This document shows positions 13,427 through 18,099 of a stretch of DNA of 24,000 bases, in pieces. The position numbers and the translations under genes were made by a program. Every line of letters begins with the position of its first letter. Position 1 is the first letter of the stretch. The notes under the pieces are model-generated. The model was not told where the DNA came from, made no database searches, and was given only the letters and a program-made list of their open reading frames with translations. This DNA comes from Pilibacter termitis (GTDB lineage: Bacteria > Bacillota > Bacilli > Lactobacillales > Streptococcaceae), in contig NZ_FUXI01000013.1 in the NCBI RefSeq assembly GCF_900167335.1, positions 41,153-65,152 of the forward strand, in the 5' to 3' direction.

Positions 13427-13557
13427 TTTATTTCATTCATTTTTAAAATTAATCACAGGAGAATTGTTACCGATAGGTGCGAAAAATGGTGGAAAAAAGA
13501 AGAAAATATGTTAATTTAATCCCAAAAGGGAATACAAAAAAACGGAGGATACAGAAA

Positions 13558-14775
13558 ATGAAAGAAAAATTACAAAATCTACAAAAGAAACACGTGATTG
13601 CTGGTGTTGTGGGAGTGTTTGTCGTTCTGATTGGTTTGACGTTTGTTGTGACGAAAAACGTTGAGGCGAAACGTGCGGAGGCGATTGCGGAGCAGAAAAA
13701 AGAGTTTGAGAAGAAAAGTAAGGACTTGGAGAGTATTCAGAGTGAAATCAAAGGTCTTTGGGAAGATGAGACAAAAGGATTTTTGAAAAAAGAAGTGTCA
13801 GAGGATACTTTCAAGAAACTTCAAAAGCAGTTTTCAGAGCATAAAATCGCAAAAGAAGTAGAAAACAAACAAGTAGAGAGTGCGAAAAATGACTACAACA
13901 AAGAAATCGCAAAAACGACAAAAGTTTTTGGTGATTTTGAGGTGACGTTTAACTCTCAAACAAAAACAAATGCACTGTTCAAAGCACCCGTTGTTATTGG
14001 AAAAGAAGTCAAAAAAGACGGAACGATTTCAGACGGTTTGACGATTGAAAAAATCAATGAAGTCGATACTGAAGTCTTAAACAACGAGTTTTCAAAAGCG
14101 GTCGCAGAGTTGAAAAAAATTGCGACTGACCAAGTCAACGGCATTACCAACAGCAAAAAAGCGGTAGAGGCTCTTTTCAAAGACGGAAAACCGCTTGACA
14201 ACGAAGAAAATTACAACAAAGTAAAAAAAGAAGTTGAAAAAATCAAGAATGAAACTGCCAAAAAAGAGCTACTTGCCAAACTTGACCAAGTGAAAAAAGT
14301 GGTCGAGGAGAAGAAAAAAGTAGCCGAAGAAAAAGCGAAAAAAGAGGCGGAAGAAAAGAAAGCAGCAGAAAAAGCAGAGGCGGAGGCAGCCGCAGAACAA
14401 TCTGGCGGAAAAGCCGTGCAAGACGACAGCGGAAATTGGGCAGTGGAAACACCACAAGGTGTAACCGTAGCCCCAAGTCAAGCAGCACCTCAAGCTCAAG
14501 CACCAAGCAATAACAATAACGGAAGTAGTACAGGTGGCGGGAATACCGCAAGTCCACAAACTCCTGCCCCACAGCCTGCACCGAGTCAACCAGTGACGAT
14601 TGTTGCGGGAGCTGTTGGGAATAGTGGAATGATTTTCGATACAGAATCAGAGGCTGATGCTTGGGCGACTGCGGAACGCTGGAAAGAGGGAGGAAAATGG
14701 TTTAAGAAATCACAACAAGTTGTTGACATAGTTTATTCTGACGGTAGCAGAAAATGGACGGTGAATTTCTTTTAA
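13558..14775 (+). CDS. Membrane-anchored coiled-coil, low-complexity surface protein with unknown C-terminal domain
   Basis: Start re-called at ATG 13558 (RBS cggagga), whereas the ORF track starts at 13477. The protein has an N-terminal TM (VIAGVVGVFVVLIGLTFVV), about 270 aa of K/E-rich helical repeats, a P/Q/A/S-rich linker, and an about 70-aa C-terminal domain (...GMIFDTESEADAWATAERWKEGGKWF...WTVNFF). Confidence 0.75.
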   Translation: MKEKLQNLQKKHVIAGVVGVFVVLIGLTFVVTKNVEAKRAEAIAEQKKEFEKKSKDLESIQSEIKGLWEDETKGFLKKEVSEDTFKKLQKQFSEHKIAKEVENKQVESAKNDYNKEIAKTTKVFGDFEVTFNSQTKTNALFKAPVVIGKEVKKDGTISDGLTIEKINEVDTEVLNNEFSKAVAELKKIATDQVNGITNSKKAVEALFKDGKPLDNEENYNKVKKEVEKIKNETAKKELLAKLDQVKKVVEEKKKVAEEKAKKEAEEKKAAEKAEAEAAAEQSGGKAVQDDSGNWAVETPQGVTVAPSQAAPQAQAPSNNNNGSSTGGGNTASPQTPAPQPAPSQPVTIVAGAVGNSGMIFDTESEADAWATAERWKEGGKWFKKSQQVVDIVYSDGSRKWTVNFF

Positions 14776-14782
14776 TAATAGT

Positions 14783-14821
14783 AAAACCCAACCTCTCATT
14801 TTGGAGGTTGGGTTTTGTTTT
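14783..14821 (+). terminator. Rho-independent terminator
   Basis: Stem aaaacccaacctc(14783-14795)/gaggttgggtttt(14804-14816) followed by a T-rich tail. Confidence 0.85.
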
Positions 14822-14865
14822 AATTAATTTCGTTTAGAAAAAAAGACAAATTTTGTAAAAATTGC

Positions 14866-14894
14866 TTGTTTAATCACAGGAGTTAGTTTAGAAT
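14866..14894 (+). promoter_or_regulatory. Putative sigma-A promoter of the toxin mRNA
   Basis: TTGTTT (14866-14871), a 17-nt spacer, then TAGAAT (14889-14894). Confidence 0.5.
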
Positions 14895-15008
14895 GGTTTT
14901 AGGGAACGAAAGTTTAATTGACGGTAGCTAAATACTTTTTGAGAGGAAGTGATGCCTATGAAAGTAGGATTTAAAGTTCGCATTCTAACGAAAGGATTAG
15001 CACTTAAA

Positions 15009-15104
15009 ATGACTGTTGCAGAGGCTCTGTCATTGATGTTAGCGTTTGGCTCTTTTGTCGCAACGCTCATCTTTGGTATCCTTGAAGCCAACAAGAAAAA
15101 GTAA
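15009..15104 (+). CDS. Small hydrophobic peptide, TxpA/BsrE/BsrH-like type I toxin ('putative holin-like toxin' family)
   Basis: Not in the ORF track. ATG 15009 to TAA 15102-15104 gives the 31-aa peptide MTVAEALSLMLAFGSFVATLIFGILEANKKK, with one TM helix and a KKK tail. It resembles B. subtilis BsrE (MSTFQALMLMLAIGSFIIALL..., from memory). In-frame upstream ATGs at 14952 and 14958 (RBS gagaggaag) would give 50- or 48-aa forms. Confidence 0.65.
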   Translation: MTVAEALSLMLAFGSFVATLIFGILEANKKK

Positions 15105-15142
15105 AAAACCCGTCTCTACTTTAGCCAGTTGACGGGTTTTTT
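15103..15142. terminator. Bidirectional rho-independent terminator
   Basis: Stem aacccgtc(15107-15114)/gacgggtt(15131-15138), flanked by A6 on the left and T6 on the right. It therefore works on both strands. Confidence 0.8.
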
Positions 15143-15186
15143 ATAACTTCAATATAGCTACCGACTTTTAATCGGTCGTTCCTTAT
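15105..15186 (-). ncRNA. Candidate antisense/antitoxin sRNA (~85 nt), convergent to the toxin gene
   Basis: Predicted only. It would run from the strong minus-strand promoter (15220-15193) to the shared bidirectional terminator. It would be fully complementary to the 3' end of the toxin mRNA. Confidence 0.35.
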
Positions 15187-15192
15187 AGTTTT

Positions 15193-15220
15193 ATTATATA
15201 CCGAAATTAAAAGAAGTCAA
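15193..15220 (-). promoter_or_regulatory. Near-consensus sigma-A promoter on the minus strand, pointing at the toxin 3' end
   Basis: The minus strand reads TTGACT (15220-15215), a 16-nt spacer, then TATAAT (15198-15193). No ORF follows it. Confidence 0.6.
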
Positions 15221-15241
15221 CTGAAAAATCATAAATAAGGC

Positions 15242-15281
15242 AAAAGCCAACTTTCATTTTATTTGAGAGTTGGCTTTTTTT
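15242..15281 (+). terminator. Orphan rho-independent terminator-like hairpin
   Basis: Stem aagccaact(15244-15252)/agttggctt(15268-15276) followed by T-run. There is no obvious upstream + strand gene or promoter between 15143 and 15241. Confidence 0.55.
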
Positions 15282-15390
15282 GCGTTTGAGAAAGAAAGGA
15301 AAAAGCGAAATGCCAATAAAAAATCGTTCGCCTTCGTAAAAATCGAGGTGAAAAAGACAAACTAAAAGAAAATTAAAATAGGAGGTTAAA

Positions 15391-16314
15391 ATGAATTTTC
15401 ATTTCAAACAAAAAGTAAAAAAAGCAACGGTTTTATCTGCTTTGTTGCTTGCAGGGTTTGCACAAGCACGAAATGTCTCCAGTGAAACGTTAGATATTCA
15501 ATATCTAAGTCCAACCGTTCATTATGAAAGTCATACACAGGGTTATACTGGTTTTGCTGATATTTCTAGGATGTATATTGACGGCAAACTTGGGTGGTGT
15601 ATTGAGCCAGAAACCCCCGCACACGCAGGGGCTGGATATAGTAGCACACCTAGCTATAATCATAAGATGAATCTCATTACCGCTATGGCAAGCGATTTAG
15701 GAGCTGAAACGAATAACGAAATTTTTGTTGGTGCTTTGAAAATGTTGCATGGCGAAATTAATTGGACGTGGGATAAATTGACAGGAATGACTATGGCAAC
15801 GGCAGATTCGGCGATTGGTCGTATTAACACGAAAATCACTGAATGGAATACAAAACCAAGTTTTGACGGTCAAACGATAACGGTGAAGTATGGCGATAGT
15901 ATCACTTTGACGGATACGAACAATGTTCTAAGTGAATATTCGAATATGAAAGTTAATAGTGCAAATGTAATCTATTCAATTAGTGGAAATAAAATAACTA
16001 TTACCCCAAAAGACGCTACCAAAGCTAGTGGTATTTTAGGTTTCCAAAGACCCAAAAGATATGGTTCACCGTTAGTCTGGGATAAACCGAGTTCTCAAAA
16101 AATTATTACACAAGGCGACCCTTTTAGCTTACCTTTCAACATCAACATAAAAGTAACCCTCCAAGGAGATGCCGAAATCCTAAAACTAGACAAAGTAACC
16201 AGAAAACCAGTCGCAGGGGTATCCTACAAAGTCGATTTCTCGGACGGCACACCAAGCAGAACCGTTACAACTGGAAAAATCCCTTGTTTTATCGCAGGTT
16301 TTAGATTAGAATAA
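15391..16314 (+). CDS. Secreted surface-adhesin N-terminal fragment (likely 3'-truncated gene)
   Basis: RBS aggagg. Signal peptide MNFHFKQKVKKATVLSALLLAGFAQA. The last ~40 aa (DAEILKLDKVTRKPVAGVSYKVDFSDGTPSRTVTTGK) look like the start of a Cna-B/SpaA-type fold. The ORF then ends abruptly with no LPXTG sorting signal, and 240 bp of non-coding DNA follows. Confidence 0.6.
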   Translation: MNFHFKQKVKKATVLSALLLAGFAQARNVSSETLDIQYLSPTVHYESHTQGYTGFADISRMYIDGKLGWCIEPETPAHAGAGYSSTPSYNHKMNLITAMASDLGAETNNEIFVGALKMLHGEINWTWDKLTGMTMATADSAIGRINTKITEWNTKPSFDGQTITVKYGDSITLTDTNNVLSEYSNMKVNSANVIYSISGNKITITPKDATKASGILGFQRPKRYGSPLVWDKPSSQKIITQGDPFSLPFNINIKVTLQGDAEILKLDKVTRKPVAGVSYKVDFSDGTPSRTVTTGKIPCFIAGFRLE

Positions 16315-16557: not shown

Positions 16558-18099
16558 ATGCTTAAACAACTTGTTGGAAAAAATTATTTTTCTACTATAT
16601 CTTTTTCTTATTTTTAACTTGGTTAGAGTCCATTATATTTCCAATGGTTATGCAAATGATTATTTTAGCCATTCAAAAACATGACTTGAAAGAGTTGACC
16701 ATGAGTTTTTCTTCTTTCTTGATACTTAGTGCTTTGACTGTTATCGGTTTAACAGGAAAACGAATTTTTTATGCTAAAATTGATAAAACGTTTAAATACG
16801 AGTTGAAAGCAAAAGTGTTTGAACAGCTACTCAAACAAGAAAAATCAGAAAACGCACTTTCTTTGATTGAAAATGATGTTAATCAACTTTCATCCAATTA
16901 TTTGGAACCATTTGTGATTATTCTCTCAGCTATCGGGACGATTGTCATTAGTATGAGTTATATTTTATATACGAATCTGCTCATTGGTGCAATTTTTGTT
17001 GCCTCATCAGCAGTTATTTCGTTATTTAATGGCATTGGTGTAAAAAAATTGAATCATTTATCGGAAGAAAAGTCTCGTTATAATGCAAAATATTTCAAAA
17101 GACTTCAAGATTTTTTTGCAAGGAAGACAAGTCATCCGAGATTATCAGGCACAGGCTTTCTTTAAAAAATATTTTCCTCGTGATTTACTTTATTCCGAGG
17201 AGGCAAATGTTCGTTTGGAAACGCAGAAAGCGTGGAATAATACCTATATTTACTCGCTTGAGATGTTTTTTAGTTTCTTGCCGTTGATGATTGGTGCATT
17301 TTTTTCTTATCAAGGTCAACTTGAAATCAGCAGTTTGGTTGCCATTTATATAGCGAATTTGAGCATTGGGTATAGTTTCCAAGATTTAACGTATTACCTT
17401 AATTCGATTAAAGGAATGAAGAAATTAAAAGAAAAGATTATGAGTATTTTATCTTGGAAGGAAGAAAAAGCGAATATTCAGCAGGAAGAATCATCTATTT
17501 TTCCGATAAAATTTGAAAATGTAAGTTTTTCGTATGATGAAAAAGAGCTTTTTGAGAATCTTTCATTTGAGATAAAATTCGGTGAAAAAGTAGCGATTGT
17601 AGGTGAAAGCGGAGCTGGGCAAACAACGCTTTTAAAATTAATTACAGGTGAATTGTTACCGACAGGTGGAAAAATCACGTATCGAGGAAAAGAATTTTCA
17701 TCAGAATTTCTAAAAAATAATTTGACGTATATTAGGCAAGAACATCACATTTTCAACTTAACTTTGGCAGAAAATGTGGCATTAAATGATGAAATTGATA
17801 GAGAAAAAGCACTTTTGAGTTTGTCGAAAAGTCAATATAACCCTTCTTTTTTAGAGAATACGATAGAGAAAGATGAATTATCTGGCGGTGAAAAAAGTCG
17901 AATTGAACTTGCTCGTGCGTTATATAGAGAAAAGGATTTATTGCTTGTCGATGAGGCAAAAGCACATTTGGACAAAAAGACAAGCCGGCAGATTGCTCAT
18001 ATTTTGCACCATTTACCTGTCACGATGATTGAAATTAGTCATCAAATTGAGGATTTGAGTGTGTATGACCAAGTGATTGCCATTCCTCAAAGGGAATGA
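16558..18099 (+). pseudogene. ABC exporter (fused TMD-NBD) disrupted by two homopolymer frameshifts, with a Walker A Lys-to-Gln change
   Basis: ATG 16558 (RBS ggagga) gives MLKQLVGK. The frame breaks at A6 (16578-16583), and the reading continues in ORF 16644..17165. A second break occurs at T7 (17111-17117), continuing into ORF 17083..18099. The NBD has GESGAGQTT (CAA at 17620-17622), LSGGEKSR and LLLVDEA. Confidence 0.7.

Follow-up and report, generated by a model that had tools for sequence, protein, structure and literature searches.

Does the region between positions 14866 and 15285 of the 24,000-nucleotide (nt) stretch of Pilibacter termitis DNA analyzed here, hereafter termed the window, encode a type I toxin-antitoxin system, and at which point does the toxin messenger RNA (mRNA) end? 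The initial annotation had proposed a small toxin-like peptide faced by a convergent antisense promoter, with both RNAs stopping at one bidirectional terminator, a layout in which they would overlap by only ~45 nt. The open reading frame (ORF), both promoters and the hairpin on which it was built were all located at the positions it had given. Our analysis favors, with moderate confidence, a chromosomal cassette that belongs to the BsrE/BsrH-like (“holin-like toxin”/rli28/RatA) family of type I toxin-antitoxin systems and in which the toxin mRNA reads through the shared hairpin and is closed by a helix between its 5′ and 3′ parts. Judging from homology and sequence, a weak promoter would give rise to a structured mRNA for a membrane peptide of 31 amino acids (aa), and a convergent promoter to an antisense RNA of ~85-90 nt ending at 15102-15143. 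The 5′ end of the mRNA is complementary to 15152-15185, beyond the shared hairpin, with compensatory changes in the two segments, implying that the toxin mRNA probably reads through; modeled structures suggest that part of the transcripts probably extend to 15185 or beyond. The same arrangement is present in helix P1 of bsrG mRNA, and it is on this point that the proposal of one terminator for both RNAs with a ~45-nt overlap does not fit. The features referred to below are as follows.

14866-14894, plus strand: toxin promoter, TTGTTT (14866-14871), 17 nt, TAGAAT (14889-14894), 8/12 matches to consensus, without an extended -10 box
14887-15082, plus strand: match to Rfam rli28 (RF01492), 53.9 bits, full-length, covering the leader and most of the coding region
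14900-14933, plus strand: 5′ arm of the predicted long helix (the equivalent of P1 of bsrG mRNA), inverted repeat I1, 34 nt, 76% complementary
14935-14941, plus strand: predicted anti-Shine-Dalgarno segment CUUUUUG, paired with 14989-14995 in the minimum-energy folds of the 248-, 290- and 388-nt forms
14941-14960, plus strand: conserved Shine-Dalgarno-like stretch and two ATGs (14952 and 14958) that share the toxin frame and would give 50- and 48-aa forms
14992-14997, plus strand: Shine-Dalgarno sequence AAAGGA of the 31-codon ORF, 11 nt before its ATG, buried in a predicted helix
15009-15104, plus strand: toxin ORF, 31 aa, ATG at 15009 and TAA at 15102-15104, product MTVAEALSLMLAFGSFVATLIFGILEANKKK
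15097-15186, minus strand: putative antisense (antitoxin) RNA, ~85-90 nt, of RatA type without the 5′ hairpin of the family
15102-15143, both strands: shared hairpin with A6 and T6 flanks, arms 15102-15114 and 15131-15143, 13 base pairs (bp), 100% complementary (inverted repeat I6)
15152-15185, plus strand: 3′ arm of the long helix, inside the antisense gene and downstream of the shared hairpin
15193-15220, minus strand: antisense promoter, TTGACT, 16 nt, TATAAT, 11/12 matches to consensus
15242-15285, plus strand: intrinsic terminator from the terminator scan, a 15-bp stem followed by a T-run, with no upstream gene of its own except the toxin

The identity of the peptide is the firmest point. 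It matches the Pfam family Hol_Tox (PF16935, “putative holin-like toxin”) with 49.8 bits (E = 3.1e-13) against a gathering score of 23.3 bits, residues 1-31 being aligned with positions 1-34 of the 34-position profile, and the proposed membership of this family is thereby confirmed. A single transmembrane helix with a hydrophobic core of ~20 residues, followed by a KKK tail, can be read from the sequence; the small hydrophobic peptide that belongs to the general definition of type I toxins is thus present, as one predicted membrane helix. The ORF is intact and every residue invariant in the family is retained. Its start codon is ATG, compared with TTG or GTG in relatives. In the ORF listing it forms the 3′ part of a 51-codon ORF with a GTG start (14949-15104), and a public protein collection holds a 50-aa version of the gene, on a 74.6-kb contig, with PF16935 already attached, so that the locus can be called unannotated only in part. 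A homology search with the 51-aa form matched no protein except itself. Two NCBIfam models scored below their cut-offs, namely ComI (NF052249; the best NCBIfam match, 24.4 bits against 55) and PepG1 (NF041589; 16.8 bits against 70). On sequence grounds these scores represent distant similarity only, and they are the sole measured links to the Bacillus and Staphylococcus members. As a separate observation, the poly-A run that encodes the lysine tail is also the A-flank of the shared hairpin, and its length varies between copies. Changes in its length shift the frame and extend the C-terminal tail in eleven homologous loci (L001, L002, L032, L050, L051, L053, L073, L088, L090, L097 and L098); the toxin gene contains a tract prone to slippage.

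The transcript that carries this ORF also belongs to a known family. Its promoter lies below the threshold of the promoter scan at 8/12 matches and was therefore unlisted by it; its -10 box is aligned with a TATAAT that almost all of the 63 homologous loci have. Transcription is predicted to start near 14901, giving a leader of ~108 nt. The rli28 match of 53.9 bits exceeds the gathering score of 45 bits, which identifies the plus-strand RNA as a member of the rli28 family, which in Listeria comprises the mRNAs for BsrH-like toxins, with the outer stem of the model badly formed in the window (marks of non-canonical pairs). It should be noted that the Rfam model, with 186 positions, stops within the coding region and excludes the 3′ partner of the mRNA 5′ end; it appears to describe a truncated piece of a toxin mRNA of ~300 nt. 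Within the leader, GAAAGGA is invariant across an alignment of 59 family loci, and the cost of opening the ribosome-binding region was calculated in silico as ~9-10 kcal/mol. The columns of the leader ATGs are likewise invariant in these 59 loci (alignment A3, columns 44-61, with GGAGGTGGTGCTTATG nearly invariant). Their frame relative to the toxin varies between loci: it is the toxin frame in the window and in L001, another frame in L003, and that of a 5-codon upstream ORF in L004. This variation points to conservation at the RNA level, or to a decoy or standby site, and since the upstream ATG is often out of frame in relatives, the long toxin form is not a conserved product. A consensus fold of the leader alone was uninformative owing to alignment gaps.

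On the opposite strand, the antisense promoter is the sole site in the whole 24-kb window, both strands counted, with 11/12 or more matches. As a window of shuffled sequence gives 1.36 sites of this quality, the site carries no significance by itself. The promoter becomes credible because it is aligned with the RatA promoters of homologous loci. A custom covariance model was built on 28 family RatA genes; it matches 15094-15197 of the minus strand with 43.3 bits (E = 6e-7), the next best score in the window being 17.4 bits, and in this match 22 positions of hairpin 1 are replaced by 3 nt. In an alignment with 19 diverse relatives, the -35 box, the -10 box, the conserved hairpin and the terminator all line up with the window; the conserved hairpin reads CACCG...CGGTG in the relatives and ACCGA...TCGGT in the window, and the hairpin of ~25-30 nt that follows the RatA start in the relatives is absent from the window. 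Since the custom model matches with the 5′ hairpin deleted, the antisense gene is homologous to the family RatA but shortened, and the window, to the extent that sequence can tell, encodes a truncated homologue of the antitoxin RNA of the family. The predicted layout of the RNA consists of 10 unpaired nt, the hairpin ACCGAUU...AGUCGGU, a spacer and the terminator, and its two hairpins fold with -27 kcal/mol (z = -4.1). The locus thus contains a predicted cis-encoded antisense gene, with its own promoter and terminator (15143-15102), that overlaps the toxin mRNA, as expected of a type I system. The RatA-type antisense RNA that had been suggested holds as regards homology, as seen from the custom model and the promoter alignment; it does not hold as regards a standard RatA, given the missing 5′ hairpin and the failure to match RF01776.

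The first 38 nt of the antisense RNA were also paired in silico with the short mRNA and with the upstream leader or ribosome-binding site. The resulting -18.3 kcal/mol is no better than the -19.0 kcal/mol of shuffles, and pairing in trans of the kind seen with SprA1AS or par was rejected. The par system (fst/RNAII) of the Enterococcus plasmid pAD1 has convergent transcripts with a common bidirectional terminator, and 5′ direct repeats provide a second region of complementarity. The initial annotation had named it as a parallel. This likeness is weak, since the window peptide matches Hol_Tox only and no Fst family, and the energy of the antisense 5′ part gives no sign of the 5′ repeat complementarity.

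The evidence that the toxin mRNA extends beyond the shared hairpin comes principally from the long-range helix. The duplex of the two window arms has an energy of -32.3 kcal/mol, compared with -10.6 ± 2.7 kcal/mol for shuffles and -15 to -18 kcal/mol when a window arm is combined with the arms of other clades. Matched substitutions specific to the window are observed in both arms (GGAACGA with TCGTTCC, and GGTAGCTA with TAGCTACC). For the family, 59 non-identical loci were aligned over the region between the toxin start site and the RatA promoter, and RNAalifold predicts the long-range helix unaided, with four pairs changed on both sides: GC in 29 and AU in 26 loci, UA in 31 and CG in 23, AU in 31 and UG in 25, and GC in 29 and AU in 25. 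In a version of 20 pairs, 96.2% of the cells are paired, as against 33-65% after a shift of the partner by 1-3 columns, and the covariation score of 0.272 (0.168 for shuffles) was exceeded by 0 of 500 shuffles. Furthermore, G-U wobbles occupy several positions of the helix, and such pairs can form in the plus-strand RNA only.

Folding of the window transcripts gave a consistent picture. In an RNA of 290 nt (14901-15190), the long helix closes the fold, and the minimum-energy structure is identical to the centroid (-93.1 kcal/mol, z = -6.6). In the 388-nt form (14901-15288), both the long helix and the hairpin at 15242-15285 are kept (z = -6.9). In the predicted folds, a hairpin has the AUG at its base, the 5′ arm of the shared hairpin contains the stop codon, and the Shine-Dalgarno sequence is part of a helix. 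A helix from the first ~35 nt to a 3′ segment, a buried Shine-Dalgarno sequence and these positions of the start and stop codons are the marks of bsrG/bsrE-type mRNAs, all of which are recovered here in prediction. A terminator directly after the long helix and an overlap of 100-140 bp, further marks of this type, were not found in the window, where the overlap reaches ~90 bp at most. An effect of the antisense RNA on translation, of the kind described for SR4, was also considered. Across the family, the mean cost of opening the ribosome site changes from 12.8 to 13.9 kcal/mol upon antisense binding, rising in 34 of 59 loci and falling in 9 of 59. Tightening of the ribosome-site helix was rejected, the difference in the window being 0.7 kcal/mol and the direction within the family inconsistent.

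What becomes of the two terminators then has to be considered. The shared hairpin, whose 5′ arm holds the toxin stop codon, serves as terminator for the antisense RNA, and its plus-strand form is, by analogy, the counterpart of SL3 of bsrG mRNA. It was not listed by the terminator scan because its 16-nt loop exceeds the limit of the scan. By a crude measure, the T-run at this hairpin in the family contains on average 7.0 T in 9 nt on the minus strand versus 4.7 in 9 on the plus strand, and the plus-strand T-run is absent in many relatives; the window has T6 on both strands. In the relatives, the long helix is followed within ~5 nt by a covarying hairpin with a T-run (alignment columns 313-339). 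This hairpin is the plus-strand terminator of the toxin, and its complement is the 5′ hairpin of RatA. It is kept in 57 of 59 aligned relatives and deleted in the window. In its place, the intrinsic terminator at 15242-15285 is probably the end of a read-through toxin mRNA of ~385 nt. A side observation concerns the same region. The hairpin that terminates the upstream gene (14782-14819) resembles, as a direct repeat, the one immediately after the cassette (15240-15281), with a local alignment score of 28 against 13.4 ± 2.3 for shuffles and 0 of 1000 shuffles as high, and 15240-15281 is the best match anywhere in the window to the upstream terminator hairpin. A terminator may have served as the insertion site of the ~420-bp cassette or as its point of recombination.

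This arrangement agrees well with systems mapped experimentally. Probing of bsrG mRNA, which is 296 nt long, revealed that nt 1-35 pair with nt 232-262 in helix P1, that this helix is situated past the hairpin to which the antitoxin terminator is complementary and is directly followed by the mRNA's own terminator, and that the Shine-Dalgarno sequence is part of a helix, SL2 has the start codon at its base and SL3 has the stop codon in its 5′ part (PMC3834814). The terminator loop of the antitoxin SR4 contacts SL3 first and then invades the 3′ arm of P1, freeing nt 1-33, and on SR4 binding the helix with the Shine-Dalgarno sequence grows from 4 bp to 8 bp (PMC3834814). Neither complex formation nor inhibition requires the segment of SR4 that is paired with the bsrG terminator (PMC6562991, PMC3834814). 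The structures of bsrE mRNA and SR5 are strikingly similar to those of bsrG/SR4, antitoxins of the BsrE/BsrG type in B. subtilis bind to the toxin mRNA's 3′ end and promote its decay, and bsrE/bsrH-like systems are present in Bacillus, Lactobacillus, Halobacillus and Enterococcus (PMC6562991). The convergent, 3′-overlapping layout noted at the outset is indeed that of the BsrE/BsrH, BsrG and TxpA systems (PMC6562991). The bsrG/SR4 and bsrE/SR5 pairs share with the window convergent 3′-overlapping genes, the long closing helix, the buried Shine-Dalgarno sequence and the placement of the start and stop codons, and BsrE (30 aa) and BsrH (29 aa) are close in length to the window peptide. They differ in that their antitoxins comprise 163-180 nt with an overlap of 100-140 bp and a terminator right after the helix, whereas the antisense RNA in the window would have ~85-90 nt and that terminator is gone. 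The txpA/RatA pair is likewise a type I system with a 3′-overlapping antisense RNA, for which degradation by ribonuclease III (RNase III) is documented with RatA; TxpA comprises 59 aa and RatA 222 nt, and Rfam RatA has no match in the window. In sprG1/SprF1 of S. aureus, described as a TxpA/RatA homologue, two peptides are made from two in-frame starts, and the window also has in-frame upstream ATGs; the similarity of its peptide to PepG1 is weak, as given by the NCBIfam score above.

Close counterparts are found in Listeria. In plasmids of Listeria, a small BsrH-like ORF overlaps with rli28, and an Rfam RatA gene lies opposite rli28 (PMC9484302). The length of Rli50 was 306 nt in RNA sequencing and ~350 nt on northern blots, that of Rli112 is ~140 nt, and their overlap amounts to ~43% (PMC3105390), as would be expected if the toxin mRNA continued past the RatA terminator as far as its own. 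These loci, rli28 and rli50 with the RatA-like rli78 and rli112, and the plasmid cassettes have the same Hol_Tox peptide and rli28 mRNA families as the window, together with a homologous antisense gene, an aligned promoter, the shared hairpin, the 5′-3′ complementarity and the buried GAAAGGA. Compared with them, the window has an antisense RNA of ~85-90 nt instead of ~125-140 nt, the 5′ hairpin and the toxin terminator having been lost; it is this loss that causes the Rfam RatA model to fail on the antisense gene. The toxin gene starts with ATG and not with TTG or GTG, 4 extra nt follow the Shine-Dalgarno sequence, and the context is chromosomal. In E. faecalis, the TxpA-family protein EF3263 (ef3249-RatA locus) is toxic when overproduced in E. 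coli, and an antisense RNA of ~110 nt was detected (PMC2887945).

A sequence of events can be proposed from these comparisons. The weak toxin promoter and the strong convergent antitoxin promoter would produce both RNAs. From structure and covariation, some toxin transcripts would pass 15143-15148, reach 15185 and probably stop at 15242-15285, and the first ~33 nt of the mRNA would pair with 15152-15185, closing the molecule in the manner of bsrG P1. Meanwhile, the predicted structure would keep the Shine-Dalgarno sequence buried through the pairing of 14935-14941 with 14989-14995. From the analogy to SR4/bsrG and RatA/txpA, the antisense RNA, whose whole length is complementary to such a transcript, would first meet the loop of the complementary hairpin and subsequently zip into the 3′ arm of the long helix, displacing the 5′ end of the mRNA. 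The perfect duplex of ~85 bp would then be cut by RNase III and the toxin mRNA degraded, as with RatA, SR4 and SR5. The lost 5′ hairpin corresponds to the dispensable part of SR4, indicating by analogy that the short antitoxin is probably sufficient and that the cassette is probably still functional.

Several results weigh against this account, and it is here that the alternatives gain their footing. The clean plus-strand T6 and the loss of the family's toxin terminator imply that most toxin transcripts could stop at ~15148 and never form the long helix. The changes in the helix arms come from about five clades, hence the number of independent covariation events is small. The toxin promoter is weak at 8/12, with relatives having a TATAAT -10 box, and a 4-nt insertion places the Shine-Dalgarno sequence 11 nt from the ATG instead of 7. 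Rfam RatA (RF01776; gathering score 49 bits, strand opposite the toxin) has no match at E ≤ 10 within 14600-15500. Antisense binding hardly alters the accessibility of the ribosome site in silico, the cost changing only from 9.1 to 9.8 kcal/mol, and thus a translational effect like that of SR4 is unsupported for the window. Moreover, no close relative of this variant was found, the best being a metagenome peptide with 73% identity and one on an E. faecalis-associated contig with 67.7%. If the first of these points is followed, an mRNA of ~248 nt and an antisense RNA of ~85 nt both end at 15102-15143, and a 3′ duplex of ~45 nt alone exerts control. The fully symmetrical hairpin with its A6/T6 flanks, the deletion of the second plus-strand terminator of the family, and the stable fold of the 248-nt form (z = -3.2) all suit such a layout. 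It would, however, leave the complementarity to 15152-15185, with its window-specific compensatory changes, functionless, and the antisense RNA would find no target for its first 38 nt (-18.3 versus -19.0 kcal/mol); homologous mRNAs go well past the hairpin (bsrG 296 nt, Rli50 306-350 nt), and the plus-strand T-run is lacking there in many relatives. It is considered doubtful, although it is the most serious of the competitors. Still less likely is a minimal design of the family, in which the antitoxin is cut down to what recognition requires (the terminator loop and a segment complementary to the long helix's 3′ arm), the shared hairpin has become a true two-way terminator, and the efficiency of termination at 15143-15148 splits the transcripts into short and read-through forms. 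Under that design, the short form could not close its 5′ end and would offer ~45 nt to the antisense RNA, the read-through form would be closed by the long helix and fully targetable, and read-through of the terminator, rather than the abundance of the antitoxin alone, would set the share of toxin mRNA under antisense control.

The losses themselves could also be taken as decay. The window would then hold a remnant that has lost ~30 nt (the antitoxin 5′ hairpin and, on the other strand, the toxin terminator), that has a toxin promoter of reduced strength and an unfavorable Shine-Dalgarno distance, and that is no longer expressed as a working pair. The deleted hairpin 1, the promoter with 8/12 matches and no extended -10 box against TATAAT in relatives, the 4-nt insertion between the Shine-Dalgarno sequence and the ATG, and the damaged appearance of adjacent genes, with split ATP-binding cassette (ABC) transporter ORFs, can all be read in this manner. 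Nevertheless, we regard it as improbable, somewhat more so than the minimal design: the ORF is intact with all family-invariant residues, the antisense promoter is near-consensus, matched changes occur in both helix arms, and the SR4 equivalent of the lost hairpin is dispensable. A weak toxin promoter combined with a strong antitoxin promoter is, furthermore, the normal design of these systems (PMC8167048). Finally, the plus-strand RNA might be mainly regulatory, or the peptide non-toxic, for example a ComI-like inhibitor, with no toxin or addiction module at all. Rfam rli28 is annotated as a small RNA (sRNA), Rli28 and Rli50 were first described as regulatory RNAs in Listeria, a Listeria rli50* deletion mutant, from which part of rli112 is also removed, is attenuated in infection models (PMC3105390), and the best NCBIfam match of the peptide is the competence inhibitor ComI with 24.4 bits. 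That score is far under the cut-off of 55, though; coding capacity is conserved in the family and the leader frames are not; a convergent antisense gene with a buried ribosome-binding site is a hallmark of toxin control; and the family member EF3263 is toxic (PMC2887945). A non-toxin role therefore appears very improbable, the least credible of the alternatives.

The favored reading, a type I cassette whose toxin mRNA passes the shared hairpin, leaves the general understanding of such systems unchanged. The family has already been described and its architecture mapped experimentally, and the truncated antitoxin together with the apparent relocation of the toxin terminator is a minor variation. 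Its main value lies in annotation, in that Rfam RatA misses the antitoxin gene and the mRNA is likely to be labelled only as “sRNA” rli28. Moreover, the rli28/RatA families of Listeria, Enterococcus and lactobacilli share the 5′-3′ closing helix mapped in bsrG mRNA, and as the 3′ partner of this helix lies outside the Rfam rli28 model, the model truncates the biological transcript. A natural variant without the 5′ hairpin of the antitoxin also offers a ready test of which parts of the antitoxin are dispensable.

Homologous cassettes are widespread in Bacillota. By tblastn, relatives of the peptide were found in 235 plasmid records from Enterococcus and Lactobacillaceae, mostly annotated as “putative holin-like toxin”, and cassettes are also present on Tetragenococcus plasmids, with Rfam RatA opposite the toxin. 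In four plasmid loci examined, rli28 matches the toxin strand with 60-81 bits and RatA the other strand with 51.7-77.3 bits. Coding capacity is kept across the family, the reading frames of the leader are not, and the identity of the window peptide to its nearest relatives is 64-73%. A scan of a genome collection with an ATG-anchored pattern retrieved only distant Lachnospiraceae and other loci. The closest relative of the peptide in the annotated collection, on the E. faecalis-associated contig L101 (OR846602.1; 67.7%), is accompanied by a normal long RatA. Tandem arrays of cassettes were also observed, with four RatA-type matches within 1.2 kb in L101 (518-1713) and two in L019 (1587-2111). 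A second antisense gene without the 5′ hairpin, as judged by alignment, is found in L076 (metagenome contig OAWB01000304.1, ~1330-1800). Its peptide starts with ATG and has the motif EALSLMLAFG in common with the window peptide, and its arms GGAGCAATC and GGATTGCTCC are complementary with a sequence unlike that of all other clades; the antisense gene itself is too divergent to be detected by the 28-gene RatA model at E < 0.01.

A plasmid or phage origin of the window was considered and rejected, as megablast searches of plasmid and phage sequences, with the cassette or the whole window as query, returned nothing relevant. Together with neighboring genes of chromosomal housekeeping type (miaA, a VanY-type peptidase, a glucosaminidase and the phospho-beta-glucosidase gene bglA), this identifies the context of the cassette as chromosomal. 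Further downstream, 16644-17165 and 17083-18099 encode the membrane domain and the ATPase domain of an ABC transporter on overlapping ORFs in different frames, which looks like a frameshifted or split gene. The genes directly flanking the cassette, 13477-14775 and 15391-16314, gave no Pfam match. The product of the former is a Lys/Glu-rich protein of 432 aa with an N-terminal hydrophobic segment and a Pro/Gln/Ala-rich region, and that of the latter comprises 307 aa, with a signal-peptide-like N-terminus and an abrupt end.

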